Below, piece after piece: positions 7,404-34,951 of a stretch of DNA of 64,000 nt (within the stretch, counting starts at the first letter, position 1; each line of letters opens with the position of its first letter). The DNA is from an uncultured Methanosarcinales archaeon. Its GTDB lineage: Archaea; Nanobdellota; Nanobdellia; Woesearchaeales; SKGA01. A program made the position numbers and the translations under genes. Under the pieces are notes generated by a model. That model saw only the letters and a list, made by a program, of their open reading frames with translations. It did not search any database and was not told the origin of the DNA. Location of the stretch: the NCBI GenBank assembly GCA_964428395.1, contig CAYRYB010000001.1, positions 139,971-203,970 of the forward strand, in the 5' to 3' direction.

Positions 7404-7437
7404 GTAAGAAAGAAAAGCAAACGAGTTTGCTGTTTAT

Positions 7438-7590
7438 TTATGCTGTATCAAATCCACCTGGTTCAAGATTAAAAAGCATGTTGCCCAGTCGTTTTGATTG
7501 TTCTTCATCTAAAGATATTTCTTCTATTTGCCCTTCACCAAAGTCAAGTGTTAATTTAACCACGTCTGTTATTTGCACAGATATATGCAT
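7438..7590 (-). CDS. possible small ORF (50 aa, MHISVQITDVVKLTLDFGEGQIEEISLDEEQSKRLGNMLFNLEPGGFDTA), absent from the ORF track
   Basis: A 50-codon ATG..TAA ORF read manually from the minus strand between polB and repeat copy 1. No homology recognised. Confidence 0.2.
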   Translation of the reverse strand: MHISVQITDVVKLTLDFGEGQIEEISLDEEQSKRLGNMLFNLEPGGFDTA

Positions 7591-7650
7591 GTGAAGACAC
7601 CAGACTCTATTCTTGAAACTATAGTTTAAAAGTGTTGCGATACGGTTTTA

Positions 7651-7815
7651 AAATCATAAAAATCTGCAATGAGTGTCACACCCGCGCCCTAAAGGGACGG
7701 GGTATGACATGACACTCATAGTATCTGCAGATTTTTAGGATACCAAAAATTTCGATCTAAAGAACGGGGTATTAGACCCCAGAGAAAAAATCTCTGTCGA
7801 AATTTTTTAGTATAA
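7651..7815. repeat. copy 1 of a ~165-bp structured intergenic repeat (nested hairpins), between convergent genes
   Basis: Near-identical to 40148..40375 (which adds an insertion) and to 58462..58630. Contains the 10-bp stem atgagtgtca/tgacactcat, the stem aaatttcga/tcgaaattt, and inner stems acgggg...cccc and agaga...tctct. Confidence 0.85.
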
Positions 7816-7843
7816 TAAGAAAAGATAAAGAAAAAACATCTAA

Positions 7844-8911
7844 TTATAAATTACAGCTGTCAAAAAGCTCTTTTCCTCGCTTAGACATATTGTTTAAATA
7901 AGAGGTTAATGTTTTCATCACCAATTCTTTTTCTTCATCGCTAAGAGCAACATTCTTAAGCATATCACTCCAATTTGCTTCCTTGAAAACGTCAGGTGAT
8001 GAAAAAGTACTTAGAAATGTTCTGTTTGCCTTAAGAACCTCTTGTTCTGTCATTACGCCTTCTGGTTTATTAAAAATAGTGGTTGCGGGTAATTTTGTGA
8101 ATGCGTTCGCGCCCGCTCGCAAAAATAAACTAATTTCAGGAATTCTATAAATTGCTGAACCTACAATAATCTCTATTGTTGGAAAGGCAATTCGTGTTTT
8201 TGCAATCCACCACGCAACATCCAATGAATCTGGACCGTGTAAAAAAGGTGTTCCTCGTACTGGTCGCAAAGCATAAATAGTTATGCGTTCAAAATGATGT
8301 TCTTTAATAAATGCTTCAAGCAATGCAAAATCTTCTTTTTTTTCTCCTAGACCAATAATGACGGTCATACTTTGTTTAAAGCCGAGTGCTCGTGCTTCTT
8401 TCATCATAGCAACGTATGGTTCAATAGGTTTATCCGGACAAACTTGCTTATGCAATGTTGGTTCAAGTGTTTCAATACTGCTAACAATTCCCTCAACGTA
8501 TGGCTGAAATTCTTCAAGAAGGTCAGTTGAAATTTCTCCAAGGTTAATCCATATTTTTTCTCCAAGAATCTGACTTACTAATTGAATAGTGCGCAAAAGT
8601 TCCTTGTCATCAAGAATACCATAACCACCTGTTAAAAATTCTATTCGCCAACCAAATGCTTTTATCATCATTGCTTCAGCTAATATACTGTGCAGACTTC
8701 TTCTCGCTTTTGACGGATGCTTAATGAGATGTTTTTGTGTGCTTCGAAAACAAAACGTGCACGTGCCTCGTTCGCAATAAAAGGAAAGAAAAATACATCG
8801 TCCAAACCAGACTTTCCCATCAAAATGTTCTTCATACACGTTATTTGCTTGAGTAATAAGTTTTGCTAGTTCTCCTGTTGGTTCTGGTGTTGCTGTTATT
8901 GGATCATCCAT
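7844..8911 (-). CDS. radical SAM-like enzyme (BioB/HydE-like fold) with non-canonical CX4CX2C cluster motif
   Basis: 355 aa. The segment FYCERGTCTFCFRS is followed by GGYG and the TIM-barrel-like alternating pattern typical of BioB-family radical SAM proteins. The exact family is not resolved. Confidence 0.45.
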   Translation of the reverse strand: MDDPITATPEPTGELAKLITQANNVYEEHFDGKVWFGRCIFLSFYCERGTCTFCFRSTQKHLIKHPSKARRSLHSILAEAMMIKAFGWRIEFLTGGYGILDDKELLRTIQLVSQILGEKIWINLGEISTDLLEEFQPYVEGIVSSIETLEPTLHKQVCPDKPIEPYVAMMKEARALGFKQSMTVIIGLGEKKEDFALLEAFIKEHHFERITIYALRPVRGTPFLHGPDSLDVAWWIAKTRIAFPTIEIIVGSAIYRIPEISLFLRAGANAFTKLPATTIFNKPEGVMTEQEVLKANRTFLSTFSSPDVFKEANWSDMLKNVALSDEEKELVMKTLTSYLNNMSKRGKELFDSCNL

Positions 8912-9043
8912 TAAAAAAAGAAAAGGTGAGGAGCTTAAAAAGATTATCTAAAATAGGCTCTGTTCCAAAAGGAATAAAAAGATATACTAATACCTTAACG
9001 TAAAGTTTTTATGAGCATGATTTATGCAGTGTTCATCAAGAAA

Positions 9044-9562
9044 TCAAGAGAATTTTTCCATGTTCAAAAAGCTTTTGACTGTTTGTTCCAAAAGAGCATA
9101 TTCTTTTTGTGCTCGTTTTTCTGCTCGGTATAAATAGTTCTTGATAACAAATTTGTCAACAAGTGTTCTAATAAAGAAAACAAACGCTTTTTGTTCTATG
9201 CTCTGATCGTAATGTGTCTCTAACCATGAGTGCGTTTTCATAAAAAATTTACATTGATGCATGCGAACTTTTTGTCCTTCTTTTTCCACAATCATTTCTT
9301 GCATTTTAGTAAATTCTAAATCTATCTCCCAGAGTATTTTAGCATAATCAGAAATTTTTGTATCACCTAAAAGCTTAATAACAATTTCTTTTCCATCAGG
9401 GAAAACTTGTTCTTTATGATCTGCTTCATACATATTATAGCCATGATCCAAGAGCAAATCTCGAATCGTTCGATAAACACCCTGTATACTCACTAAACCT
9501 TCGTACGTTAATGTCTTGTTGTTAACAACTGTTTTTCGTTCGGGCATAGTATTTAATAACAC
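9044..9562 (-). CDS. hypothetical protein, tandem paralog of 9553..10074
   Basis: 172 aa. Shares the YEGLVS/YDYDGLVS block and overall length with the upstream ORF. Overlaps it by 10 nt. Confidence 0.5.
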   Translation of the reverse strand: MLLNTMPERKTVVNNKTLTYEGLVSIQGVYRTIRDLLLDHGYNMYEADHKEQVFPDGKEIVIKLLGDTKISDYAKILWEIDLEFTKMQEMIVEKEGQKVRMHQCKFFMKTHSWLETHYDQSIEQKAFVFFIRTLVDKFVIKNYLYRAEKRAQKEYALLEQTVKSFLNMEKFS

Positions 9563-20939: not shown

Positions 20940-21959
20940 TTATGGACAAGCACTTGCATTAGAATAAGATAATCCATCCACTTCGTAGGTGGTTGCTTCG
21001 TTTTGCGGAATAACAAAATAAAGAGATGCAGGCAAACCAGTAACATTACAAAGTTTTACACCTCCTAAATCATTAAAGTAAATAAAATCCACTTTAATCC
21101 TGTTTTCATAGACATCTTTGTCCTGCGCAGCAATATCTCCTATATTTACTATGCTTTGTATACCATAAGGGCTTGGAGTATTATTATTTTCAAAATGTTG
21201 TAAAAAGGAGGGCGCATTTGTTGAAGCAATATAATACGATTTGTTTGCGAGAAGTTGTAAATTGGTTGTATCATTATCGCTTGTATTTACTAAAAAGAGA
21301 AAGGGCGCTTCTCGTACCGTATTTGGAACAGTATTTTCTGTAAATTTACTATACAATGGATCTCGTAAATCAAAAATAGGTACTTGAGTAGTATACGTTT
21401 TTTCAAAATGCCATGATGCAACATGTTTAGTGTCGGAAATATTAACTTTTGTATGAACGGCAACTGTTATCTTCCACGGATCTTCTTGTGAAAGCGTAAT
21501 ATTAAGAACAGTAATATTTGCTCGTAAACCAATTTGACTTGCTAAGAAATTAACACGAGCAAGATAATCTGAAAAACTTGACGCGTTCATTAAAGTTACA
21601 TTAGTTTGGTTAATAGTGCCATTAAAGAATGCTTCCTCAAATGCAGTCGCTGTATTGTTAAAAAACCCTGCAGAGGTTGATGCGATATAATCTTCTAAAG
21701 AAAGCAACGCTCGAAAGGATGAGATATATGTTGCTCGATGTACATCTTGATTAAAGTCGGTTACAAAATCATTCATGAGCTTTACGCGACTTTCGTAAAT
21801 GTCTTGTTTGTCTTGAAAGGTATATCTGTTCGTTGAAAGGAAAACAAATATGATAATAGTTGCAAGGATTGTTGCGGTTACCAAATAGGTGAATCCTTTT
21901 TTGTTAAATTGTTTCATTGTCATGTCCATACTGTTGTACTTACCGTTGTTGGTCCCCAT
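20940..21959 (-). CDS. pilin-like N-glycosylated protein (class III signal peptide; true start probably at internal MTMKQFNKKG|F)
   Basis: KKG|FTYLVTATILATIIIFVFL is a prepilin-like motif. Many N-x-S/T sequons. Ends in Cys. Confidence 0.55.
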   Translation of the reverse strand: MGTNNGKYNSMDMTMKQFNKKGFTYLVTATILATIIIFVFLSTNRYTFQDKQDIYESRVKLMNDFVTDFNQDVHRATYISSFRALLSLEDYIASTSAGFFNNTATAFEEAFFNGTINQTNVTLMNASSFSDYLARVNFLASQIGLRANITVLNITLSQEDPWKITVAVHTKVNISDTKHVASWHFEKTYTTQVPIFDLRDPLYSKFTENTVPNTVREAPFLFLVNTSDNDTTNLQLLANKSYYIASTNAPSFLQHFENNNTPSPYGIQSIVNIGDIAAQDKDVYENRIKVDFIYFNDLGGVKLCNVTGLPASLYFVIPQNEATTYEVDGLSYSNASACP

Positions 21960-24649
21960 AAATAAGGTACGCCATTTATCAATGTTATCGTGATTTCTAA
22001 ATCTGCTTCTGTTAAATCCACGATGACCTTGCCATTTTTATCAGGGTCTAATTGTTCAAGCAAGTGGTACGTTGCAGAGTCATAGGCATCATCGCTATTA
22101 TAAACAATACTCGTGTTTGTATAGTTACATTGTTTGCTTCCAGAATAACTTGTTGGGATAAGTAAATGTGAGAAAAGCTCTGATTCTGATTGTATGGTCC
22201 AATTACAACCATCATGATACGTAAAAGTTTGACTTCGTGGTGTTGATGAATTAATTAATGCAGTGTAAATAAGTGTGTTATTGGGTGAACAAATTGAATT
22301 GTTAAGTGGCGAGTCCCCTACCTTCATAACAATTGTATTATCTGTTCCAGGAACCAATGTCGTTGAAGGTATTTGTATAAGAAAAGGATCTCCTAGTAAA
22401 ACATAATCATTGCCATAATCACTTAAATTAAAAACAACCACATTATTAACGGTTACTAACTTTGTCCAATGCTTAGAAGAAAATGATGTAACATAAGCAT
22501 TAGTTATTTCTATTCCCTCAGGCAGAGGAATAGTTGCGCTGCAACCACCAAATTGAGCAGACTCAAATGTTAAGGATATTTTTCCTTGTTTATCTACTTG
22601 TGTTAATGGTTCATAGTATAAATCAATGTATGAATTATTATACAGGTGCGCTAGGGAGTAATTACCAACAATATTAAGTGTTTGCGAAGAATAATTTGCT
22701 ACAACGAGTATTTGTTCAGAAATATTCTTGTATATTTGTGCAAGCTGTGAAACATTGGTTGCATTATAGTAAAGCGAGGAATTACAAGCAATTTGTTGCA
22801 TGACTGATTGTCCTGAAGCAGTCATTCCTTCACTAAATCCTATTGCATAAACAGTAATGTTATCTGCGCATGCTTGCTGCGCTGCAGCTATTGCATCGTT
22901 TTGTGATTGCGTTCCATCATTGCCAACAGAAGAATATGTGTGTAAATCACCTCCACAATGTCGCGTTGGTTCACCATCACTTAAAACAACCATAAATTTT
23001 TTGTTCGTTGAACTATTTATCGAATCTCTAGCCCTATTAATTCCACAACAGGTGCATGTTCCGCCTCCTGCAGAATAAGTGTCAATCTCTGAATCTAAAA
23101 CTCCTTTTACATTGGTTAATGCTGTTTGAGGATTTGCGTTTGTTGAAAAATCTACAAGACCAATTTTGTGAAGAAGCGAGTCATTAAGAATAGTTTCTAC
23201 AAAAAGATGATCTGCTTCTTTTGCAATGTCTAAGAGTGTTTTATTACAGGTTGTAGTTGTTTTGTTATAGATAACATGATTTTTTGTTGTTGAAGTTCCG
23301 CCACATTCATTAGAAACGCAAGTTGTTGTATAAGGGCATTCTGTTGAAAACCACCATACCCACCACTTATATTCATATTTGCAGTATTCCACATCATGCG
23401 TGTAATATTCTCCACAATCATTCATACTTCCTGAAACGTCCGTTACGAGAAATGAATCTGATGGTTTGCCTGCGTTAACAACAGTAATGTTTGAAAGATT
23501 GGTCGTTCCTAAGCGCAATGGTATTTCTGTTGGTGGAAGAGTTTGATTTATTCTTGAATAAAGAATATTTTGCGTGATATTTTGTCCTGGAGAAATAAAA
23601 ATAGTTTCATTAGCTAAAGTTACAAACGTATCATATTCATTATACAACGTCAAATTCATAGTCCAATTGCGTATTAGTCCTTGCGCGCCAAAGGCATCAT
23701 ACATGTTTAAGAATCCATCAATTTGTGGGAAGAAATATCTTCTGTAACCAGGTGTTACAGGATCATTTACTGTGTCCGTTGTATACACCACTTTAAGAAA
23801 TCCTCCTGAAATATACGATTCATTTAAATCGCTAGTAAACGCTAAAGTAATATTATTTTTTCCTGCTTGAAAAGAAGTATTGCAAGATATAATGTTCCAT
23901 AAATTTATTTGTCCTACTTGTCCCGTTCTTGGTCCTCCACAAGGATTTTCATTAATATAGAATTGAAATGTTCCTGGTGTTTCTATTTTAAGGTCTGTTG
24001 ATAAAAGTCGTGAAGTAGAAAAATCAGCTGGTAGCGTTAAAGATACCGTGATATTTCCCTGTCCGTAAAATCCTCCAAAATAAGCATAGGCATTTGTTTT
24101 TTTATTGCGTACTTTTTTAAGATAGGCCGAAGAACTTGAACCAGTAATAGGTGCACCTTTTGCAATTCCAGATATCATTCGTCTTGTTATAACCAAATTT
24201 TGTATTGGTGAATCATTTCGTTGAAAGATAGAATCGTTCTCAATTGAAAATTTAATATTCAAATTTGGTGGAAGTGAGGCATTGGTTATTATTTCAAAGA
24301 GTTCTTTTGCTTTGGCAGTTTTATTTAATGCCCAATATTCACCAATTTGTTCTAAAACGGTATTGTTGACATTTGTTATGTTGCCCGTTGTTATCTCACT
24401 AGTTACAAAAGAACTATTCATTTCATTGATTGTTATCGCTCCTAAAACATTAAGAAGATCTTGCGTGATAAACGATTTCTCATTTATTGATGGCTCATAA
24501 TAGGTAACAGAAAGTAATGTTGCTGCAACACCAACTAATAAAAGTCCTGCTAAAAGCGCGTCCATTGAGTAATAAATTCCTTTTTTCTTTATCATTTTAC
24601 TCCCATGAATAAACAATAAGCTGTAATAATGATGCGTTGTAGGCAACAA
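21920..24649 (-). CDS. large pilin-like adhesin with vWA domain (class III signal peptide; true start probably MIKKKG|I at about 24595)
   Basis: KKKG|IYYSMDALLAGLLLVGVAATLL is a prepilin motif. The MIDAS motif LVTDVSGSMND is present, with downstream vWA-like T and D positions. About 60 N-glycosylation sequons and Cys-rich segments. Confidence 0.7.
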   Translation of the reverse strand: MLPTTHHYYSLLFIHGSKMIKKKGIYYSMDALLAGLLLVGVAATLLSVTYYEPSINEKSFITQDLLNVLGAITINEMNSSFVTSEITTGNITNVNNTVLEQIGEYWALNKTAKAKELFEIITNASLPPNLNIKFSIENDSIFQRNDSPIQNLVITRRMISGIAKGAPITGSSSSAYLKKVRNKKTNAYAYFGGFYGQGNITVSLTLPADFSTSRLLSTDLKIETPGTFQFYINENPCGGPRTGQVGQINLWNIISCNTSFQAGKNNITLAFTSDLNESYISGGFLKVVYTTDTVNDPVTPGYRRYFFPQIDGFLNMYDAFGAQGLIRNWTMNLTLYNEYDTFVTLANETIFISPGQNITQNILYSRINQTLPPTEIPLRLGTTNLSNITVVNAGKPSDSFLVTDVSGSMNDCGEYYTHDVEYCKYEYKWWVWWFSTECPYTTTCVSNECGGTSTTKNHVIYNKTTTTCNKTLLDIAKEADHLFVETILNDSLLHKIGLVDFSTNANPQTALTNVKGVLDSEIDTYSAGGGTCTCCGINRARDSINSSTNKKFMVVLSDGEPTRHCGGDLHTYSSVGNDGTQSQNDAIAAAQQACADNITVYAIGFSEGMTASGQSVMQQIACNSSLYYNATNVSQLAQIYKNISEQILVVANYSSQTLNIVGNYSLAHLYNNSYIDLYYEPLTQVDKQGKISLTFESAQFGGCSATIPLPEGIEITNAYVTSFSSKHWTKLVTVNNVVVFNLSDYGNDYVLLGDPFLIQIPSTTLVPGTDNTIVMKVGDSPLNNSICSPNNTLIYTALINSSTPRSQTFTYHDGCNWTIQSESELFSHLLIPTSYSGSKQCNYTNTSIVYNSDDAYDSATYHLLEQLDPDKNGKVIVDLTEADLEITITLINGVPYLWGPTTVSTTVWT

Positions 24650-25097
24650 GACGTTGTGTTGTTACTAAATGTTTATAGGTAATTGAGGATAAATCTGGTT
24701 CACAAGTAAGCGCATCATATGCTAAAGGATATCCATGTAAACAGTTTGTAAGATTGATGATTTGCGTGTTATTTTTAAAAAAGAAAATATATTCATTGGT
24801 TACATGATACAATGTTTTTGTATGATTATAATCAAGAGCATCAAATTGTGTTAATTTAGTCAGGTTAAGACGATAATCATCAGTAATTCCTGGAAGTAAT
24901 ACTGTTGTTACACTCCAATTATTTGGATAACCATCCAAAACAAGTTGATCAGAAATATAAACATTATTTCTGTAAAGCTCTGTGTATGCTCCTGCAGGTA
25001 GAATATCTATAATTATTTTTATTGCAAGAAGTAAAAGAAAGATAAAACCAACGAGGCCTAAAATAAAATCAACGGTAAACATTTGTGCTTTGCTCAT
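24597..25097 (-). CDS. minor pilin (class III signal peptide)
   Basis: N-terminus MSKAQ|MFTVDFILGLVGFIFLLLLAI. Confidence 0.6.
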   Translation of the reverse strand: MSKAQMFTVDFILGLVGFIFLLLLAIKIIIDILPAGAYTELYRNNVYISDQLVLDGYPNNWSVTTVLLPGITDDYRLNLTKLTQFDALDYNHTKTLYHVTNEYIFFFKNNTQIINLTNCLHGYPLAYDALTCEPDLSSITYKHLVTTQRLVAYNASLLQLIVYSWE

Positions 25098-25118
25098 TTT
25101 TATTCTCTTTAGTAAGGT

Positions 25119-25514
25119 TTAGTTTAGTTGTAAAACTCCATTTTGCTTTCGCAAAACATTTGTTCCTTTTATCATGCTTCCATTAATAACAGGAATAACA
25201 TAAAATAATTCTTGATGTGAAAAAAGAATACTCATATATCCATTGCTTGCACTTGTATTGCCAATAACGATAGTATAATTCATATCATTTATTTTTTCAG
25301 GAACGCTAAAGAATCGCTCATAGCCATCCTGTACTTGCGTTCCTAAGAGGAGCTCTTGTTGCAAGCTTTTTCCCAAGTCATTTAGTTGTTCGTACGTGTT
25401 CTGTGTTGTTTTATCCGCTGAAAGGGTGAGCGCTGCCCCTATAACTATGAAAAGGAAAAAAAATCCTGTTATTCCTAAAAGAATAAATTCTATAGATACT
25501 TGTGCTCGTTTCAT
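25119..25514 (-). CDS. pilin (class III signal peptide)
   Basis: N-terminus MKRAQ|VSIEFILLGITGFFFLFIVIGAA. Confidence 0.65.
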   Translation of the reverse strand: MKRAQVSIEFILLGITGFFFLFIVIGAALTLSADKTTQNTYEQLNDLGKSLQQELLLGTQVQDGYERFFSVPEKINDMNYTIVIGNTSASNGYMSILFSHQELFYVIPVINGSMIKGTNVLRKQNGVLQLN

Positions 25515-25516
25515 TT

Positions 25517-25957
25517 TTATGTGTCCGTAAGAAGAACATCGTCAGCTTGTGCTTTTATCACAATAAAATGAGGTCCTTCGAATTTTTTTAATGATCCACT
25601 AAGATTAATAGCAGTCTCTTTAATATAGTCATAATTATACGTTGCCGAAGTCATGTTAAAAATAAGTTCGTTTGACTGCACACTAACGGATTGTATACCT
25701 GAAGGAAATGTTATTCGAACAGTTTTTTGTGCTGGTGGGCCCATAAAATAAACTTCTTGAGCTGCATCAGTAATGAGTGTTGCTGCTCTGTCTAATTGTG
25801 CGTTGGCGATGTCTGATTGTAAATTACTTGTTTGTGTTGTGAAAATGATGATTAAAGGTAACGTCATAAAAAAAGCCACTGAGAAAATGATTAAGTATTC
25901 CATGGCCACTTGACCTTTACACATCCTTTTCATAAAGATAATTGACGCTGAAGGCAT
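25517..25957 (-). CDS. pilin (class III signal peptide; start probably the internal MKRMCKGQ|V)
   Basis: KGQ|VAMEYLIIFSVAFFMTLPLIIIF. Only a 2-nt gap to the downstream pilin gene. Confidence 0.6.
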   Translation of the reverse strand: MPSASIIFMKRMCKGQVAMEYLIIFSVAFFMTLPLIIIFTTQTSNLQSDIANAQLDRAATLITDAAQEVYFMGPPAQKTVRITFPSGIQSVSVQSNELIFNMTSATYNYDYIKETAINLSGSLKKFEGPHFIVIKAQADDVLLTDT

Positions 25958-26043
25958 ATTTAAAGATGATGTCTTTATCGACTAGTTAAAACAAGAAAAA
26001 AAAGTGAATCCTAATGAGATGCAAGAGAAGAAGCAAAGAGAAA

Positions 26044-26072
26044 GAAATAAAGAAAAAAAAGAAAAAAAATAT
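26044..26072 (-). terminator. oligo-T tract (minus strand) immediately after the major pilin stop codon
   Basis: Plus-strand agaaaaaaaagaaaaaaaat equals T-runs on the coding strand 5-30 nt after the TAA at 26077-26079. Archaeal intrinsic terminators are oligo-T runs. Confidence 0.35.
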
Positions 26073-26076
26073 TTAT

Positions 26077-26595
26077 TTACGCGTATTTACCATCTACACT
26101 TCCCGTGTGGGTGATCGTTTGCGTTGTTTCAACATTTGTATAATCCACAGTCAATTCCGCTTTAAATTTATCACCAACAGTAGGGTTTAGACTTGATGGG
26201 TCACAATCCCATTTTAAAAGGAAGGTTCCTCCGTTTGGAATTTGTGTTGTGTCTGCAACAATTGGTGCACCAGAATATGTTCCTGTAATAACAGGGTTAT
26301 TACATTCTACTCCGGTTGCAGGTGAAACATTTCCTGTTAAAGGCAAGGTAATTGCCACACCTTTGTTATTTTTAAATGCTATTTCAATAGAATTGTCAGC
26401 AAGGCTAACTACTGCGTTATCTAAGTTTGCGATTGGTGCAGTGAACGTTGTTCGCTCTGGCAAGAGTTTTTGGGGGCTTAATACACCAAAATATGCCAAT
26501 GCTCCGATTGCCAAAAGTACAACCAAAATTGCCCAACCATACGTCATTAAGAACTCCATGGCCGCTTGTGCTCGTTTTCTCATCATTAAAAACAC
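26077..26595 (-). CDS. probable major pilin (class III signal peptide; likely true start at ATG 26586 rather than the GTG at 26595)
   Basis: N-terminus (M)MRKRAQ|AAMEFLMTYGWAILVVLLAIGALAYFG. The SD-like gaggtg lies 9 nt upstream of the ATG. It is the first gene of the locus, with its own TATA and an oligo-T terminator. Confidence 0.7.
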   Translation of the reverse strand: MFLMMRKRAQAAMEFLMTYGWAILVVLLAIGALAYFGVLSPQKLLPERTTFTAPIANLDNAVVSLADNSIEIAFKNNKGVAITLPLTGNVSPATGVECNNPVITGTYSGAPIVADTTQIPNGGTFLLKWDCDPSSLNPTVGDKFKAELTVDYTNVETTQTITHTGSVDGKYA

Positions 26596-27367: not shown

Positions 27368-27597
27368 TTTTTTCTTTTATTTTTCTTTGTCAAGAGCGTT
27401 TTTTCCAAAGAAGAAAACATAAGAGCAACACGCAAACAAGCAAGGACAGTTGCACTAAAGAGAAAGTCCAAGAAAACAATCTAGCGGTAGCTTAAACACT
27501 TCTTAGCGTTTAATGCAAATAACTTTTTAGGCAGAGCCAGAACTGACAAACATTTATAAATGACTTCTCGTTCTTCAAACATACAGCAAGTTCTCAT

Positions 27598-27672
27598 AGC
27601 GGGATGGAGCAGCCAGGAGTGCTCGCAGGGCTCATAACCCTGAGGTCGGAGGTTCAAATCCTCTTCCCGCTA
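27598..27672 (+). tRNA. initiator tRNA-Met (anticodon CAU), archaeal type
   Basis: Acceptor AGCGGGA/TCCCGCT with A1:U72, the archaeal initiator hallmark. GGG/CCC triple in the anticodon stem. Loop CTCATAA. 75 nt, no encoded CCA. An upstream TATA-like atttataaa lies at about 27552-27560. Confidence 0.85.
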
Positions 27673-27700
27673 TTTCTTTTCAATTCTTCATCAGAAATAT

Positions 27701-27925
27701 TCACATCGAAAACTGGTTCGATTCCTTTCTCAACAAGAAGTGCATTGCTTCTTTAAGTTTTCGCCCGAGGTCGTTGTTTTCTTGCATAATCTTGTCGTGT
27801 CTTGTTTTGATTATCACTTCTAACTCTTCGCCTTTGACAGTAAGTCTAGAGCTAATAAGTGGTGCAGGCACAACAATTGAATGGGAATTTCCCACTTTCA
27901 TCAGTTTTGCAGTGAATTTTACCAT
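27701..27925 (-). CDS. AbrB/SpoVT (swapped-hairpin) family small DNA-binding protein (antitoxin-like)
   Basis: N-terminus MVKFTAKLMKVGNSHSIVVPAPL matches the K-VGNS-x-x-V/I-P signature of the AbrB/MazE/VapB family. Confidence 0.55.
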   Translation of the reverse strand: MVKFTAKLMKVGNSHSIVVPAPLISSRLTVKGEELEVIIKTRHDKIMQENNDLGRKLKEAMHFLLRKESNQFSM

Positions 27926-28004
27926 GTAGCTTTTCCTCCGTTGTTTAAACAGATTGTTATAATGGAAATCACTTAAAATATGAGAATGTTACGCTAAATG
28001 TTAC

Positions 28005-28214
28005 ATGGAAGAGTTATTACCATTATTTCGAAGCAAATTAAAGGTTGCAATACTGGAAAGTCTCAAAGAAGATACTATGAGTCCTATTATGCTTGCAAAG
28101 AAACTAAAGAAACCACGTTCAAGCATTAGTAGAATCATCTTAGAATTGGAAGAATTAGGCTGGGTGAACACGAAGAGTGGTGAGAAAGTTCTAAAAAAGT
28201 TTATAGTTCAGTAA
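28005..28214 (+). CDS. small winged-helix (ArsR-like) transcriptional regulator
   Basis: 69 aa. LAKKLKKPRSSISRIILELEELGWVN is an HTH recognition helix followed by a wing. Confidence 0.5.
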   Translation: MEELLPLFRSKLKVAILESLKEDTMSPIMLAKKLKKPRSSISRIILELEELGWVNTKSGEKVLKKFIVQ

Positions 28215-28219
28215 CATCA

Positions 28220-29176
28220 CTATTTTAATTCTATTTTTGTCAGAATTTGATCAAAAATTGCAGAATATTTCTTAATATTCTCTCGCATTTTTTTGCAATT
28301 CTCAAAATTAAATTCAAAAGATCCATAGAATATTTTCCCACTATCATCAATAGTTTCAGACTTATGAGCCAATTCATTTCGAGGTGTTATTATTTCTGTA
28401 CAATATGATTCAAAACTAAATGGTGTAGTTAAACCGATTTTGTTTATTACAGTTTCAACCGCTTCACCTTTTTTATGAGTTCCAAAAATAAATTCATCAA
28501 TGAAACTGTTAAATGAACTCCCGGAATATTCTTTTTTCTCTTGTACTAGATCTTTTACGTATAAATTCAAATATTTTTTTAAATCTTTTAGTTTATTAAA
28601 AGACCAATCTACTGTCTTGGTTATTACTTCCTCAATAAAAAAATCAGGAGTCACTAATTCTTTTTCAATAGAGCGACGTAAGATTTTTTTCTTTTTATCA
28701 TCAAGATCAGACACTTCCGCCATAACCAATCCTCGCAAATTTTCAGGATCTTGAATTTTTTTTATAGTACTTAAAAATATTTGTTTAAACTTTTCTAAAA
28801 AGAAATGATCATCACGCTCAGAACAATAAACTCCATCAATTTGTCTTTCACTTATAAGTTTTCTAAGTTTTTCCTCATCAGTTTCTTGATTAGAATAAAA
28901 AAGAACATCGGTATAATGATTACCATCTCGGATGTCTTTTATTATATCAGCACCAGATTCATAATATCCTAAGTCAAAGTCCATTAAAATGATATTATAA
29001 TCACTATATGTTCCATGATCCTCATTAAATTCACTTTTCGTCGAGATTTTTATTATATCTGCATCATTCTCACAGATAAACCCTTCCAATTGAACAATTT
29101 TTACAACTTCTTCACTTAACTCTTCAACCCAGTCTGGATCATCATCAAACCACAGAATTCTATACCTTAACTTCAT
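28220..29176 (-). CDS. response-regulator receiver (REC) domain protein with C-terminal effector-like domain bearing an Rx4H (HEPN-like) motif
   Basis: REC signatures: beta1 RILWFDDDPD (acidic pair) and beta3 IILMDFDLG (phospho-acceptor Asp). The ~200-aa C-terminal domain contains ...ITPRNELAHK (R-N-x3-H). Its stop overlaps the start of the GHKL/HK gene. Confidence 0.6.
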   Translation of the reverse strand: MKLRYRILWFDDDPDWVEELSEEVVKIVQLEGFICENDADIIKISTKSEFNEDHGTYSDYNIILMDFDLGYYESGADIIKDIRDGNHYTDVLFYSNQETDEEKLRKLISERQIDGVYCSERDDHFFLEKFKQIFLSTIKKIQDPENLRGLVMAEVSDLDDKKKKILRRSIEKELVTPDFFIEEVITKTVDWSFNKLKDLKKYLNLYVKDLVQEKKEYSGSSFNSFIDEFIFGTHKKGEAVETVINKIGLTTPFSFESYCTEIITPRNELAHKSETIDDSGKIFYGSFEFNFENCKKMRENIKKYSAIFDQILTKIELK

Positions 29177-31692
29177 TCTTTTATCTCCATCAATAATTTA
29201 ATTCCTTTCTTTTCGCTTGAAACCGTTAACTTACCATTAAGATCTTTGACAATATTTTTTGAATCATATAATCCAAGACCTGATCCTCCTGTTGTAGATA
29301 TTCCTTGTTCAAATATTGTTGCTGGGTTTTTACTAAATCTTTTGGGCAAACCATCACCATCATCTTTTATTTCAACAATTAATGAAGAACCTTTTTTAGT
29401 AAATGAAAAGAATATTTTTTTAGCGTTCATCTTTCGAGCATTATCTAATATACAGTCAACCATGTATGCAATCTCGAACGGTTTAATACGTTTTTTGAAG
29501 GAAAATTCTTCATCTTGAATTGTATATATTTTTAATGTTGAGAGCTTATTCTTATGAATATTCTGCAAATACTGTTTGAAAAAATCCACTAAATTTACTT
29601 TTTTTCCATTAAGTTCTTCCGTTAATCCTCCTTGAATTGCAATATTCGCTATTGTAAATATTTGTTTATTAACTCGATTTAATTTCTTTGCTTTCTCTAT
29701 CACTCCGCCAGTTTCTGATTCTTTCAAAATTTTCTTTGTTAATAATTCAACTGTTTGAGATTTTGTTTTAATATAATGATAATATCGAACAAGTTGTTCC
29801 TTGCTCTGGTCTTGTATCGATTTCAAAAAAATGTTCTGAGTTTCTAATTCTTCTTTTTCTTCTTTACTTTTCTTCGCTTCTTCTTCGGCTTTTTTTGCTT
29901 TTGATTCCGCTTTCTTTTTCTCTTCTTCAGCTTTTTTACTTTTTTGTTCAGCTTGTTTAGCTTTCGATTCTGCTTTTTTTCTTTTTTCTTCTTCCCCTTT
30001 TGCCTTTCTAGTTAATAAAGCAATCGACTTTTTTATATTCGACATTCCTTTTGAAGTATTTGTATCAAGTTTTATGCCCTCATTTTCTATCTTGGAGATG
30101 AAGTTATTAATTTTTTCATGTTGCTCTTTTGCTAAACCTTTCATTAAGTCAGTATCTATTGTTAAATTAAGAATATCATTCTTATTAGATGTTATGAGAA
30201 TAACTTTACTGAGCTGAGATAATATTGTTAGTTCTCGTTCGGTTTGATCTCCTTTAAGAGATTCTCTTCTAGGGTCATAATCAAATATTCCTGCCTCAAC
30301 ACCTTTCAAATAAGGATCGTTTTTATCTTTGACTTTATCCCAATCAATAACATCAGAAACAAAGAGTTCTAACTTTCTTAAAACATAATAAAAAAATGAT
30401 TTTGTAAAATCAGTTCTACCAATTGCAGTTAATTGATCATACGATGGGTTTTTAACTAATCCTTCCCTATTTGAGACAATCGTAAATAGCTCATTCTTTG
30501 GATCAGTTATTTCTATTCTACCAATACAGTCTCGAGTTCCTAGATACCTTCTTTGACCTTGAGTTTTACGTATATCAAGACCTAGCCAATCATTTCCGAA
30601 ATCTCCAAATGGACTTAATCTAAAACCATTAATAAAAAGAAATATGGATCCAAATTCAACAGACCTATATCCCATCTGACGTTTAAAATATGCTTTGGCA
30701 TATTGGTTTAAGTAAGTTAAGTGTACTCTAATATTTTTTAATAAAGAAAACTTGTTCTTTTCTTTAAGATGAAAAACAACTCGATTCCTATCTTTTAGTG
30801 TTGTAGTTATATATTTTCCATCTTTAGAAATTTCACAAGTGATTTCTGAAACCCTAAATGCTAACGAATCAAATATTTTATTTTCTACAAGAGTTCTATT
30901 CAGATAATTGTATTCTTCAACATCATCTTTATCAGTTAAATCATAATCTTCTTTGCTCAGATCTTCAACACATAACGATATTTTAAATGAATTTTTTTGT
31001 ATACTTTGATTCGGATTAATTAACTTTTCCAAGTTTTTTTTTAAATCAATTAAAGGAGTATAATAATATTCATCTTGCGATAATTCAATCCATTCTCTTC
31101 TTAATCGACTAATCTCAAGTATTGTTCCTGCACTTTCAATTGTATACCCAATCTTTTTCTTTAATTCAGTTGGTGTTAACGAATCCATTAACTTGATTCC
31201 TACTTTTTGTATAACATCATTAACAGAATTCTTATTCTCGAAATCATTCCAGTTAATTTGCAAATGCCATATTTTTGAATCTTTTTTAGATTTAGTATAA
31301 AGATCTAAATACTCACCAAGCCGATCACAAGAAAATCTGCCTACTCCTTTCGCCCCTGCTTGTACTCGTCCAAACTTTTCTCTATCTTCTCTTTTTGAAG
31401 AATAAGCAATGTTAAGCCATTTTTCTTCAATGTCCTTTAAAGACATCCCTTCTCCTGAATCAACAATTAATATTTTAGAGGATGAATCAATTAGTTCATC
31501 CCTTACAGTCGAATTTGTATCAAAATTAATGTTCTTTTTCAGATTTCGAAAATGTATTTTTACTAATTTAGAACCAGCATCAAATGAATTTTTAATTAAT
31601 TCTTGAATAGCTACAAAATCATCGTTAATTAAATCCTGTCCAAGAACATTTTTTAAGTGTGCATTTGTTTTAAAGTGTAAAGTTTTAACCAT
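29173..31692 (-). CDS. 839-aa protein: N-terminal MORC/MutL-type GHKL ATPase + charged coiled-coil + C-terminal histidine-kinase module (putative HisKA_2-like H-box + HATPase_c)
   Basis: N-terminus ELIKNSFDAG (Bergerat N-box), VDSGEGM (G1) and GAKGVGRFS (G2). Middle KAKGEEEKRKKAESKAKQAEQKSKKAEEEKKKAESKAKK. C-terminus YYHYIKTKSQTVELL (putative phospho-His region), ILDNARK (N-box), DDGDGLP (G1) and GGSGLGL (G2). Confidence 0.7.
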   Translation of the reverse strand: MVKTLHFKTNAHLKNVLGQDLINDDFVAIQELIKNSFDAGSKLVKIHFRNLKKNINFDTNSTVRDELIDSSSKILIVDSGEGMSLKDIEEKWLNIAYSSKREDREKFGRVQAGAKGVGRFSCDRLGEYLDLYTKSKKDSKIWHLQINWNDFENKNSVNDVIQKVGIKLMDSLTPTELKKKIGYTIESAGTILEISRLRREWIELSQDEYYYTPLIDLKKNLEKLINPNQSIQKNSFKISLCVEDLSKEDYDLTDKDDVEEYNYLNRTLVENKIFDSLAFRVSEITCEISKDGKYITTTLKDRNRVVFHLKEKNKFSLLKNIRVHLTYLNQYAKAYFKRQMGYRSVEFGSIFLFINGFRLSPFGDFGNDWLGLDIRKTQGQRRYLGTRDCIGRIEITDPKNELFTIVSNREGLVKNPSYDQLTAIGRTDFTKSFFYYVLRKLELFVSDVIDWDKVKDKNDPYLKGVEAGIFDYDPRRESLKGDQTERELTILSQLSKVILITSNKNDILNLTIDTDLMKGLAKEQHEKINNFISKIENEGIKLDTNTSKGMSNIKKSIALLTRKAKGEEEKRKKAESKAKQAEQKSKKAEEEKKKAESKAKKAEEEAKKSKEEKEELETQNIFLKSIQDQSKEQLVRYYHYIKTKSQTVELLTKKILKESETGGVIEKAKKLNRVNKQIFTIANIAIQGGLTEELNGKKVNLVDFFKQYLQNIHKNKLSTLKIYTIQDEEFSFKKRIKPFEIAYMVDCILDNARKMNAKKIFFSFTKKGSSLIVEIKDDGDGLPKRFSKNPATIFEQGISTTGGSGLGLYDSKNIVKDLNGKLTVSSEKKGIKLLMEIKE

Positions 31693-32992
31693 TTAGACTC
31701 GCCTTTGAACAACAATTACAGTTTAGCTCTGTATTATTACTTTGAGTTATATTAGTAACTTCTCCCTTAATAGATGAGGGCGAGCTTCTTTTTAAATATT
31801 CTTTCAAAACAATGCCTAAAATCTCTCCAAATAGCGGAGGTATAGCATTTCCAATTTGAGTATACCTTGGCACTTCTAATTTTCTGTTTTTTCCACCCGT
31901 AGTGTATTTTCCCTTGAATTCAAAAGTATCGGGGAATGACTGAATTCTTGCATATTCTCGAACAGTTAAAATTCGAGGTTCTTCATAATGAATATAATCA
32001 TCAGGTAGAGTTGTTAAAGTTGGAGATGTCCCATTAGAATCTAAAGGAATTATGCAATGTTTCTTTAGATTAAACTTCTTCTTTAACTCGTCAGAAACAT
32101 TTGTATTTCTATTTGCCTTGCTTAATATGTATCTAAATCGTTTTATTGTTTCAGTTGAATGATTTGGAAAACGATGACTATCAGGATTTGAAGATCGAGA
32201 TAAACCTTTTTTCATCAATGATTGATATGAAGAATTTTTTTTACCATAGAGTCCTGCTTTGAATCGAGGATTGTCTGGAGAATTAATCAACCCATTAGAC
32301 TGAAACAAGTCTCCTATTGCATCCTTTACAGTTGTTTTGCGAGTAATAGGCAAACCTTTCTGCTTTAGAAATTCTTTCTTATATTGATAAATATTCTCAA
32401 ATATGTCTTGGGCTTTACCTTTTTTAGTTCCAATTATAATACATCTTTCCCTTCTTTGTGGTACGCCAAAATCAGAGAAATTTATGATTTTCCAATCAAC
32501 ATCATATCCAAACTCTTTCAATTTGTTAGTGACAATTTCAGAATAAGCAATTCCTCGAGAATTATTTTTTGTTTTAAATCCTATAGTGAACCCCTTAACA
32601 TTTTCAAAAACAATTACTTGAGGTTGTACTAATTCTACAAAAGTTAAATATAATCTCAGAAGAAGATTCCTAGTGTCAGACTCATTTCTACGACCTGCCA
32701 TTGAAAACCCTTGACATGGTGGTCCCCCCACCAGTAAAGTTACGTTTCCTCTTAACGAACGTAATTGATCTGATTTTTCATCTATTAATTCATTAATATC
32801 ATGATTTGACTTTTCCAACCAAGGCACCCATTTAAAGTGCTTTGTCTTATCAATTAAATTAAATTTTAATGTCTCGAAAGCTAAAGAATCTTTTTCAATT
32901 GCAAATAGTCCCTTCCAATTAGCATTATGAAGTCCTAATGAAATGCCTCCACAGCCTGCAAAAATATCTATATAGTTGAAACTAGACTTCAT
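31685..32992 (-). CDS. DNA (cytosine-5)-methyltransferase (Dcm family)
   Basis: Motif I IDIFAGCGGISLGL. Motif IV GGPPCQGFSMAG. Motif VI ENVKGF. Motif X QIGNAIPP. The start of the downstream GHKL/HK gene overlaps by 8 nt. Confidence 0.9.
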   Translation of the reverse strand: MKSSFNYIDIFAGCGGISLGLHNANWKGLFAIEKDSLAFETLKFNLIDKTKHFKWVPWLEKSNHDINELIDEKSDQLRSLRGNVTLLVGGPPCQGFSMAGRRNESDTRNLLLRLYLTFVELVQPQVIVFENVKGFTIGFKTKNNSRGIAYSEIVTNKLKEFGYDVDWKIINFSDFGVPQRRERCIIIGTKKGKAQDIFENIYQYKKEFLKQKGLPITRKTTVKDAIGDLFQSNGLINSPDNPRFKAGLYGKKNSSYQSLMKKGLSRSSNPDSHRFPNHSTETIKRFRYILSKANRNTNVSDELKKKFNLKKHCIIPLDSNGTSPTLTTLPDDYIHYEEPRILTVREYARIQSFPDTFEFKGKYTTGGKNRKLEVPRYTQIGNAIPPLFGEILGIVLKEYLKRSSPSSIKGEVTNITQSNNTELNCNCCSKASLNG

Positions 32993-33046
32993 GTTAACAC
33001 TTTAGACGAACCTGGTTATAAACTTTTCGTTTATAAATGGGTATTA

Positions 33047-33391
33047 TTAAGGATCTGTTTGAGATGTTTTTTTATAAGCATATACCCATGAAGCATCATT
33101 ATCTCCACCACCAGTGCCACCATCTGTTCCAATAGTTTCAATAAAATATTTTTCAATTTCACGTGCTTCTGTAGAGTTCATAGCTTCCCTGAAAGCATAC
33201 CATGCATTTTCTTTTTGTACTTTATGATCTCCAAAGAGTCTTTGCTCGATATTTTGCGTTATTCCTACATACCAACTAGATTTAGCTCCACCTTCCTTGT
33301 TGATATGAGCTAGTATTTCTTGTTTAATTTGTTCTTTTTCTTTTTTCATTTTAAACACTAGTAATAGATTGGTTAAGATATATTTAAACAC
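33047..33391 (-). CDS. small GIY-YIG superfamily (YhbQ/UPF0213-like) putative nuclease
   Basis: 114 aa. SWYVGITQNIEQRLFGDH matches the second half of the GIY-YIG signature (Y-x-G-x-T-x-N/D-x-x-x-R-x-x-x-H), with a downstream Glu. Confidence 0.45.
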   Translation of the reverse strand: MFKYILTNLLLVFKMKKEKEQIKQEILAHINKEGGAKSSWYVGITQNIEQRLFGDHKVQKENAWYAFREAMNSTEAREIEKYFIETIGTDGGTGGGDNDASWVYAYKKTSQTDP

Positions 33392-33762: not shown

Positions 33763-34632
33763 TTAAAATAACGTTCCTTGTAATTCATCCGCTTTTCGTT
33801 CTTGAGCAGTTTTCTTTCCTCTTATAGCATAATCATTTTTAAAAGCATATGCTCGTGGAAAAGAAACCTCGTTTGCTAAAGGACAGTACTGTTCACACAC
33901 CGCATCATTTTTCATTAAACACAATTGTCCTGCAGTCCATAAAAAAGCATCGAGTTCAAAAATATTCACGCCTTGCTCTTTTGCAAGATCACGAAGAAAG
34001 TAACTATATTTCTTTTTTGTTTCAGTTGATTGCAAAGGATTTTCGTTGCGTATTATTCCTAAAGCAAGAGCTATATTATAATCGTGAAAGTCAATTTTAG
34101 GACAAAAATCTTCTTCATGAGAAAAAGTGAAAAGGGTATGATCTCGAAGAGTGTGCACATAAAGCCCCGAAAGTCCTTCTGAAAATCCTTTAAAATCTAA
34201 AAGTCTTTTTTGTGTTGTTACAATGTCTTTATCTAGTACATTATAGATATCTCCACCATACTTACTTTTAATGAGTTCGTAAGATGTTTGTAGATAATCT
34301 CCTTTTTTAGCCATTGAATGCATAGACTGTCGAGCAAAAATTGCTGCTTCTTTTTTTGAAAGAGAAAGGATGCTTTCAAGAGTAAAAAAAATTTTATCTT
34401 TTTTATACAAAGCGAGAACTTCTTTATAATGTTTTTTTGACTCTTTTTGTGTGTCAAAAAGAACAGCCAGAAAAGCAAGAAGAGCAAGTCGCTTTGGCGT
34501 CTCTATTTCTTTAAGAGGAACTAAAAGGTCTTGTTGATAGGCAAGATGAGAAAATTGTTCATTAAATTTCTTTCCTTGTTTCTTGAAGGGTTCAATAAGT
34601 GTTTTTACTGCTCGTTCCTTATCAAAATTCAC
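33763..34632 (-). CDS. hypothetical protein (289 aa), Cys cluster near the C-terminus
   Basis: Clean ORF. C-terminus C-x7-C-x3-C. No confident family assignment; a DNA-repair-like role is only a guess. Confidence 0.45.
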   Translation of the reverse strand: MNFDKERAVKTLIEPFKKQGKKFNEQFSHLAYQQDLLVPLKEIETPKRLALLAFLAVLFDTQKESKKHYKEVLALYKKDKIFFTLESILSLSKKEAAIFARQSMHSMAKKGDYLQTSYELIKSKYGGDIYNVLDKDIVTTQKRLLDFKGFSEGLSGLYVHTLRDHTLFTFSHEEDFCPKIDFHDYNIALALGIIRNENPLQSTETKKKYSYFLRDLAKEQGVNIFELDAFLWTAGQLCLMKNDAVCEQYCPLANEVSFPRAYAFKNDYAIRGKKTAQERKADELQGTLF

Positions 34633-34666: not shown

Positions 34667-34951
34667 TCATTCTTCCTCCAGTCCAAAACTTTCTACGAAT
34701 CGTATGATTGTTTTGTATTCTGCCAGATAATCATATCCTTTTTTTGTAAGGATATACGTTTTAGAATTATTTTTTCCTTCTTGTTCTTTTACAAAGCCTT
34801 TCTTAATAAGTTCTTTAAGGTAGTCACTCATCATTTGATGTGAAAGGTTTGATTTGTACAAAAGATGCGTTGGCTTTATCTCGCCACCTTTCAATTTAAT
34901 AGCATTGAGAATATCATGTATGATTTCTAAACGTCCTCGTTTTTTACTCAT
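34667..34951 (-). CDS. small archaeal winged-helix protein
   Basis: 94 aa. RLEIIHDILNAIKLKGGEIKPTHLLYKSNLSHQMMSDYLKELIKKGFV is a typical wHTH. Overlaps the upstream membrane-protein gene by 4 nt. Confidence 0.5.
   Translation of the reverse strand: MSKKRGRLEIIHDILNAIKLKGGEIKPTHLLYKSNLSHQMMSDYLKELIKKGFVKEQEGKNNSKTYILTKKGYDYLAEYKTIIRFVESFGLEEE

Follow-up and report, generated by a model that had tools for sequence, protein, structure and literature searches.

The closest described relatives of the locus studied here are proteins in which an HATPase_c_3 domain, a DHp-like domain named HEF_HK (PF19191) and an HATPase_c domain follow one another, reported in silico by Bellieny-Rabelo, Pretorius and Moleleki (2021; Genome Biol Evol, PMC8011034). 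In that survey 91.6% of the HEF_HK proteins were linked to a receiver-like protein, Response_reg_2 (PF19192), which was said to carry no known domain besides, usually downstream of a C5 methylase, and descent of the HEF_HK kinases from paraMORC ATPases was proposed. Here we analyze a kinase of this kind that is encoded, together with a C5 DNA cytosine methyltransferase (Dcm) and a receiver-domain partner protein, by a three-gene cassette of an uncultured Methanosarcinales archaeon (GenBank assembly GCA_964428395.1, contig CAYRYB010000001.1, positions 139,971 to 203,970; this stretch of 64,000 nucleotides is called the window below). The double-ATPase kinase is thus of an already known kind, described in silico in 2021 and with a related system validated as phage defense in 2025. 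What is new here is that the DHp belongs to a clade of its own, that the output is probably a REC-HEPN protein and that the host is an archaeon.

Three other groups of described systems are relevant. The paraMORCs, as defined by Iyer, Abhiman and Aravind (2008; PMC2292703), combine GHKL and S5 domains (GHKL+S5) and are encoded in restriction-modification operons. Ambrosia, the sole experimentally tested system of this general design that we found in the literature, is an anti-phage system of five genes (an XRE regulator, an N6-adenine methylase, an HK/Hsp90-like ATPase, a receiver protein with a domain of the winged helix-turn-helix [wHTH] type and a type IV HNH endonuclease), every one of which is required, as is the receiver Asp (bioRxiv 10.1101/2025.09.30.679545, 2025). 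HEPN RNases, finally, are recognized by the signature Rx4-6H (Anantharaman et al., 2013; PMC3710099).

The window cassette and its relatives share with the HEF_HK systems the domain order HATPase_c_3, DHp with its core His and HATPase_c in a soluble protein, the adjacent receiver-like gene, the C5 methylase upstream and a Vsr gene that is often nearby. They differ from them in the H-box, which is LxHxIG with no acidic residue after the His, in a partner that carries a HEPN-like domain with an Rx4H motif, and in the archaeal host of the window, the 2021 paper having analyzed bacteria. With the paraMORCs and prokaryotic MORCs the cassette has in common an N-terminal GHKL domain with intact ATP motifs and operons with cytosine methylases, Vsr and nucleases, whereas paraMORC1-5 carry nuclease, TIR or unknown C-terminal extensions and have helicase partners, with no histidine-kinase core or receiver partner described (PMC2292703). 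Ambrosia is similar in that methylase, HK/Hsp90-like ATPase and receiver protein lie in one cluster, as judged from its published account. The window cassette, in contrast, consists of three genes. Its methylase is of the C5 type, its receiver is fused to a HEPN-like domain and bears no wHTH domain, HNH and XRE genes are absent, and compared with the published description the five-gene set of Ambrosia is not present. The partner's C-terminal domain resembles the HEPN defense RNases (Csm6/Csx1, Cas13, AbiD/F and HEPN-MNT toxins; PMC3710099) in its helical bundle and its motif of the R-N-x-x-x-H type, but it has no significant match to any Pfam HEPN family. HEPN RNases are typically gated by dimerization or by an N-terminal sensor (CARF in Csm6/Csx1), whereas the gate in the window protein would be a receiver.

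A Kinase with Two ATPase Modules of Different Classes

Pfam recognizes HATPase_c_3 (PF13589; residues 27-170, E 6.4e-19, 68.8 bits) near the N-terminus of the kinase and HATPase_c (PF02518; residues 742-831, E 5.9e-15) near its C-terminus. The first-pass annotation of the window had proposed just this, one polypeptide with two Bergerat-fold modules of different classes encoded at 29173-31692, and these coordinates proved exact. A search for homologues that keep both modules was successful throughout, as both Pfam domains are present in 34 of the 34 homologues aligned (36-50% identical to the window protein). Across this alignment the motifs of the N-terminal module are invariant (E31, N35 and D38; D78-G80-G82; G113, K115, G116 and G118; G189-T190), as are N751, D777-G779, F794 and G803-G805-G807 of the C-terminal module, and in the N, G1, F and G2 boxes of its CA domain (N751, D777-G779-G781, F794 and G803-G805-G807) conservation is complete or at least 90%. 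Domain matches and motif invariance are both far above chance.

The N-terminal module matches Hsp90 N-domains in the PDB (E 2e-4 with the single sequence, 7e-6 with the family profile). It also has partial NCBIfam matches to the BbrUII/HgiDII GHKL restriction enzymes (E 9e-11), the HSP90 family, MutL (a weak match, on motif I) and sacsin. Compared with the CA domains of kinases it gave no match, scoring as HATPase_c_3 instead of as a generic HATPase_c. By sequence it belongs to the MORC/MutL/Hsp90 branch of GHKL ATPases and not to the kinase CA branch, so that the MORC/MutL-like class first assigned to it holds. The idea that the kinase is a restriction enzyme of the BbrUII/HgiDII type was set aside, as that NCBIfam match spans the GHKL domain only (residues 68-201). 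The region that follows is a family signature with many invariant columns and the motifs GSIFLFINGFR, DDWLGL, RKxQG, GRIEI and SxREG. It is absent among the listed PDB sequence matches, which fall in the N- or C-terminal parts of the protein. By analogy with the proteins described by Iyer et al. (2008), in which an S5/transducer-like domain follows the MORC-type GHKL domain, it may be such a domain.

The C-terminal module had been called a histidine-kinase module, and this reading was sustained. A family profile of residues 598-825 aligns with the DHp and CA domains of HK853, VicK and ZraS (E 1e-17 to 1e-15). H639, in the consensus LxHxIG, is the sole invariant His of the C-terminal kinase region, and the profile aligns it on the phospho-His of HK853 (ISHELRTPL) and VicK (VSHELRTPL) at E 1e-16 to 1e-15. 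On these alignments the C-terminal ~230 residues are a complete histidine-kinase core with a genuine DHp. At the position after H639 several residues occur (Y, H, Q, N, D, R or I), and the acidic residue found there in HisKA kinases, with T/N four positions downstream, is not kept.

Between the two modules lies a charged segment whose K/E-rich composition the first-pass annotation had described correctly. The peptide it quoted covers residues 563-608 of a charged run that extends over residues 563-625 and contains 62% K/E/R and 6% large hydrophobics (LIVMFYW). The suggestion that it serves as a DHp substitute did not stand, since the segment is a variable linker (55-124 residues long in the homologues) that runs into DHp helix 1, and the real DHp with H639 follows it. 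In the best heptad register Ala alone occupies the a/d positions, and 22 of 59 i,i+4 pairs are of opposite charge. Because there are nearly no hydrophobic core positions in the window protein, its run seems closer to a single helix of the ER/K type or to an alanine zipper than to a classical coiled coil.

On sequence grounds the published Pfam models do not capture this clade of kinases. PF19191 had no match at E<=1 in the window kinase and 33 homologues, nor at E<=0.01 in 13 further relatives, and PF19192 had none in the window partner and 14 other partners, the latter being a weak negative from a model without a positive control. For PF19191 an Acinetobacter baumannii relative served as a weak positive control (E 0.0023, 18.8 bits, under the cut-off of 24.1). 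Full-length homology links this kinase to the window family (hhalign probability 99.9%, E 5e-31, 663 columns), and it keeps the middle region, whereas its H-box is HisKA-like (AHELARI) and that of the window family is LxHxIG. Members of the window clade may have been among the proteins analyzed in 2021, because PF19191 is short and evidently insensitive. In the Acinetobacter locus (strain X4-300, NZ_CP064203.1, a 3.97-Mb chromosome filed as a plasmid) the kinase is followed by a 646-residue protein with no Pfam match (7303-9243 of the extracted locus, L085) and then, on the opposite strand, by a PAPS-reductase-like gene. No methylase was found among the five large open reading frames scanned in 11 kb of that locus.

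Conservation and Spread of the Cassette

In the window dcm, the kinase gene and the receiver gene form a tightly coupled, overlapping operon with the kinase in the middle. The dcm stop and the kinase start overlap by 8 nucleotides (ATGGTTAA), and the kinase stop and the partner start by 4 (ATGA). Dcm matches PF00145 (E 4.9e-60), TIGR00675 (E 1e-49) and PADLOC MTase_II (E 6.5e-86), and its translation shows all catalytic motifs (FAGCGG, PPCQGFS, ENV, QRRER and GNAIPP).

The family is large. A word-indexed search returned more than 3,000 kinase matches, the best 120 of which are nearly all proteins of 800-900 residues with both domains. Exhaustive search of 1.84 billion cluster representatives gave 397 clusters (50% identity) at E<=1e-30 and 2,381 at E<=1e-10. 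When one genome per species was scanned, relatives were confirmed at 503 of 600 matched stretches, that is, in at least 503 species, and relatives occur in Bacteroidota, Pseudomonadota, Acidobacteriota, Chloroflexota, Methanosarcina and uncultured archaea. The layout had been presented in the first-pass annotation as unusual and as suggestive of a new sensor-kinase architecture. It is neither unusual nor new, given these numbers and the publication in 2021 of the same layout with a receiver-like gene and a C5 methylase (PMC8011034).

Gene neighborhoods were surveyed at 80 related loci with purpose-built hidden Markov models. In 73 of 79 of them the gene directly upstream, on the same strand, encodes a closely related Dcm, and the downstream gene starts with a receiver-like beta1-DD signature in essentially all. 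Of 77 downstream genes 42 were of the REC-HEPN type, and the others mostly belonged to a second receiver-like type. Two subtypes can be told apart by what follows the kinase. In type A (43 loci and the window) the downstream gene encodes a ~304-residue protein like the window partner. Bacterial loci of this type include those of Dyella koreensis BB4 (L033) and Methylophaga (L008). In type B (~33 loci, mostly Bacteroidota) a ~232-residue receiver-like protein is followed by a conserved ~221-residue protein that has no match in Pfam and in which the motifs F.GHG......G and C.S are invariant. The motifs of this last protein may represent a caspase-like His/Cys dyad, which would make it a protease effector standing in for the HEPN domain.

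More distant relatives on plasmids, including conjugative plasmids of Campylobacter and plasmids of Rhizobium and Hymenobacter, are 23-27% identical over the N-terminal half and repeat the theme of a kinase, a receiver-like gene and a methylase (Dcm or N6). The partners of the Campylobacter, Rhizobium, Hymenobacter and Acinetobacter relatives carry unrelated C-terminal domains without the Rx4H motif. Because the theme is kept while the C-terminal domains of the partners are unrelated, the methylase-linked MORC-like kinases are, judging from their sequences, a superfamily with interchangeable outputs. One such cassette, on Campylobacter coli plasmid pCC21NB04-51K (NZ_CP109820.1, 22156-31376; locus L083), consists of a 732-residue HATPase_c_3+HATPase_c kinase, a 340-residue response regulator and a convergent dcm. 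Cassettes of this type adjoin vapD and type IV secretion genes, and were seen in 43 records of conjugative Campylobacter plasmids.

Accessory genes are also found at the 80 loci, Vsr at 13 and an HhH-GPD/EndoIII-type glycosylase at 14 (27 loci with either). Both would be expected beside an enzyme that produces 5-methylcytosine and thus fit an active methylase. With Dcm at 73 of 79 loci and Vsr at 13, the family shows the association with restriction-modification genes by which MORCs and paraMORCs were characterized (Iyer et al., 2008).

The same accessory genes could be taken to mean that the kinase is a MutL-like repair accessory, its ATPase cooperating with Vsr or glycosylase in the T:G mismatch repair associated with Dcm, and its kinase and receiver signaling DNA damage. 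The weak MutL match on motif I would agree with this, as would the fact that E. coli MutL stimulates Vsr. However, Vsr or glycosylase genes occur in only about one third of the loci, and not in the window, while the Dcm, kinase and receiver genes are nearly universal. Vsr is moreover the usual companion of any Dcm, and a repair role leaves the fused kinase core and the Rx4H effector unexplained. We regard it as very improbable.

The Receiver Partner and Its HEPN-Like Domain

The N-terminal part of the partner has the features of a receiver: a (beta/alpha)5 fold, an acidic pair after beta1, an Asp after beta3 and S/T after beta4. Its C-terminal domain is all-helical and carries an Rx4H motif, R266-N-E-L-A-H271. 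Across the window partner and 40 independent orthologues, which are 21-44% identical to it, the R is kept in 40 of 41 sequences, the N in all 41 and the H in 40. In form it resembles the RNxxxH motif of Csm6 and Cas13. It also fits the Rx4-6H signature by which HEPN RNases are recognized. The HEPN survey (PMC3710099) makes no mention of a receiver-HEPN fusion, and none was found in the searchable literature.

In 8 loci, all of type A, a PNKP-type HAD phosphatase (PF25109, E 5e-29) is encoded directly after the REC-HEPN gene. This arrangement suggests an RNA-end-healing or reset function for the phosphatase, and it supports an RNase reading of the partner, because end healing is expected near an RNase that leaves cyclic-phosphate ends. 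It also bears on another view of the helical domain, as a nucleotide- or protein-binding adaptor like the inactive HEPN of sacsin, through which the phosphorelay would modulate the methylase or the MORC-like ATPase and so achieve epigenetic or DNA-topology control instead of killing. The phosphatase is linked specifically to the REC-HEPN subtype, and R266, N267 and H271 are near-invariant across orthologues as divergent as these, as is typical of catalytic HEPN motifs. An adaptor is on this evidence unlikely.

The partner could alternatively be the output of a regulatory two-component system, in which a cellular cue, nucleotide levels for example, is sensed by the kinase, and the receiver, once phosphorylated, governs how the methylase or an unlinked restriction enzyme is transcribed. 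Regulation of restriction-modification was suggested by the authors of the 2021 study (PMC8011034) and is also the working model for Ambrosia, whose receiver has a wHTH domain and whose expression rises on infection (bioRxiv 10.1101/2025.09.30.679545). The window cassette, too, has a small wHTH gene on either side, at 28005-28214 and 34667-34951. These flanking genes, however, have no conserved counterparts among the 80 loci. The window receiver protein has no recognizable DNA-binding domain, carrying instead the helical bundle with its near-invariant Rx4H, and the three-gene cassette contains no endonuclease gene to regulate. We therefore hold transcriptional control to be improbable. The proposal in the first-pass annotation of a sensor kinase, if meant as one of the conventional transcription-regulating type, is not supported, as the context here is restriction-modification or defense-like.

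Proposed Mechanism

We propose that the cassette is a restriction-modification-like defense or addiction module in which a methylation-linked phosphorelay switches on an RNase, and we give this reading a probability of about 0.55. Of its elements, the signal at the input (DNA or its methylation), the transfer of the phosphoryl group, the cutting of RNA and the part played in defense are inferred, in contrast to the domain identities, catalytic residues, operon coupling, conserved three-gene order and REC fold, which the analysis shows. Dcm would mark host DNA with 5-methylcytosine. The kinase would act as a soluble dimer, with the MORC/MutL/Hsp90-class ATPase and the middle region as its sensor, which would probably contact DNA, or a nucleoprotein state by which DNA is reported as unmodified or foreign. 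It is plausible that the MORC-like module is the input domain, and the 2021 authors likewise raised this (PMC8011034). The long charged helix would then carry the signal to the helices of the DHp, the CA domain would phosphorylate His639, and the phosphoryl group would pass from His639 to Asp66 of the receiver protein. Phosphorylation of the receiver would lead to dimerization or de-repression and so render the fused HEPN-like domain (RNxLAH) active. Receiver phosphorylation commonly drives dimerization, and the HEPN family generally needs dimerization to form its active site. Once active, the HEPN-like domain would cut RNA of the cell or of the invader, halting growth or virus replication. 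A comparable logic is reported for Detocs, the defensive two-component system of Rousset et al. (2023), where a phosphorelay from kinase to receiver switches on a fused toxic effector during phage infection. Detocs is reported to have a sensor kinase of the TPR type, a receiver that acts as a buffer and a nucleosidase as effector, and is not known to include a methylase or MORC-like ATPase.

The defense reading is supported because paraMORC ATPases function in restriction-modification systems (PMC2292703) and because Ambrosia blocks phages. Several observations weigh against the phosphorelay-to-RNase mechanism. At its input, no DNA-binding element was identified in the kinase, and the Ambrosia methylase did not protect phage DNA (bioRxiv 10.1101/2025.09.30.679545). 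In the relay, the residue after His639 is non-acidic, unlike in HisKA kinases, and the position of the conserved receiver Lys is mostly Arg (Arg in the window, R/K121 in 35 of 41 orthologues, the equivalence being inferred from the secondary structure of beta5 in the model only). Among the models of PADLOC-DB v2 only the methylase has matches (MTase_II, DruM and DrmMII), those of the kinase and the partner being at chance level. At the output, the HEPN-like domain had no significant Foldseek match in the PDB, its profile found nothing meaningful among PDB sequences, and a relaxed Pfam scan of 12 members gave faint single matches only, to HEPN_MAE_28990 (0.086) and HEPN_Swt1 (0.15). We consider it probable that the partner's C-terminal domain is a HEPN domain, and hold back from a firmer statement because Foldseek, Pfam and the PDB profile gave no significant HEPN match. 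Each of the three alternatives discussed above is nonetheless judged less likely than the phosphorelay-activated RNase.

A more far-reaching proposition is that the type A cassettes are a widespread abortive-infection or restriction-like immunity of bacteria and archaea, in which an ATP-driven clamp of the MORC/MutL type reads DNA methylation or foreignness and reports it through a His-Asp phosphorelay-activated RNase, not through DNA cutting, with a sister subtype that uses a caspase-like effector. Such a system would directly bridge MORC-type epigenetic readers and two-component signaling. We put this forward as a tentative extension, less likely than not to hold.

The main interest of the locus lies in what it says about the output, namely a receiver fused to a probable HEPN RNase in a large clade, sometimes followed by an RNA-end phosphatase. 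It thereby offers a concrete mechanism for a family present in hundreds of species, archaea included. If true, it would show a MORC/MutL-class ATPase wired to a phosphorelay, and a compact three-gene system would join the immune repertoire known from prokaryotes. In eukaryotes, relatives of MORC take part in epigenetic silencing. The residues that bear on each step are E31, H639 and N751 of the kinase and D66, R266 and H271 of the partner.

Features of the Locus and Neighboring Genes

The features are collected in Table 1. Promoter-like elements sit within the 54-nucleotide gap upstream of the dcm ATG, and it is possible that the TATA-like elements there are the promoter of the cassette.

Table 1. 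Cassette genes, domains and motifs, with effector-associated genes at related loci. Positions are those of the window unless a locus is named.
Feature	Position	Strand	Residues	Remarks
Candidate archaeal promoter	33016..33037	(-)		TATA-like TTTATAAA at 33030-33037 and TTTATAA at 33016-33022; read from sequence
Dcm, C5 DNA cytosine methyltransferase	31685..32992	(-)	435	First cassette gene; PF00145
paraMORC-like histidine-kinase gene	29173..31692	(-)	839 + stop	ATG start
GHKL ATPase module, N-terminal, MORC/MutL/Hsp90 class	31090..31614	(-)	27-201	HATPase_c_3, motifs I-IV
Conserved middle region, family signature	30028..31089	(-)	202-555	Invariant columns
K/E-rich helical linker	29818..30006	(-)	563-625	Composition, heptad register
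DHp helices	29488..29817	(-)	626-735	Candidate phospho-His H639, codon 29776-29778
CA domain, histidine-kinase, ATP-binding	29176..29487	(-)	736-839	HATPase_c, boxes, profile matches to solved kinases
Partner gene	28220-29176	(-)	318	Last cassette gene
REC domain of partner	28811..29176	(-)	1-122	Phospho-acceptor Asp66, codon 28979-28981
All-helical HEPN-like C-terminal domain of partner	28223..28810	(-)	123-318	Predicted RNase effector
RNELAH motif	28364-28381	(-)	266-271	Partner C-terminal domain
PNKP-type phosphatase genes	L008:4860-5315, L051:9241-9690, L062:9227-9670, L077:9387-9851, L080:9415-9855, L059:9218-9664, L023:9358-9816, L021:9358-9816
Type B ~221-residue gene	L002:9361-10017			Equivalent in 32 other loci, e.g. 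L022:9333-9998, L054:5754-6413

The cassette has a GC content of 0.29 compared with 0.33-0.37 in its flanks, and the GC skew is strongly negative (about -0.2 at 28001-32000). A tRNA-Met gene (27597-27673, +) lies ~550 bp beyond its end. The low GC content and the adjoining tRNA-Met suggest that the cassette was acquired horizontally and is mobile or island-like. Around the cassette and the tRNA-Met, a search for att-like direct repeats gave low-complexity chance repeats only, and no integrase was found. The surrounding genome is archaeal and codes for aCPSF1 (E 2e-250), for a family B polymerase with an intein and for a Rad3/XPD helicase.

Just upstream of dcm, a 114-residue open reading frame (33047-33391, -) has a marginal GIY-YIG match (E 2e-5, 25.2 bits, just over the cut-off). 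It was set aside as a component of the system, having no conserved equivalent in the 80 related loci. A 289-residue open reading frame (33763-34632, -) with no Pfam, NCBIfam or PADLOC match separates it from the wHTH gene at 34667-34951, which is of the HTH_45 type. At the other end, and convergent with the cassette, the gene at 28005-28214 (+) encodes a 69-residue, HVO_A0261_N-like wHTH protein (E 6e-8). Beside it lies a 74-residue open reading frame (27701-27925, -) with no Pfam match and, by eye, an AbrB/SpoVT-like N-terminus. These two could be a local regulator and antitoxin-like pair, and may be unrelated to the cassette.

Farther away, the family B DNA polymerase (3819-7403, +; 1,194 residues) is split by an intein, with the N-terminal splicing region at residues 557-647, and its residues 690-899 weakly match a replicative DNA helicase model (NF005852). 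At 21920-26595 (-), a run of open reading frames has N-termini that by eye resemble archaeal class III (type IV pilin-like) signal peptides, e.g., MKRAQVSIEFILLG and RAQAAMEFLMTYGWAILV. This run, which a 909-residue Cys/Asn/Thr-rich protein adjoins, may be a pilus or adhesion locus.

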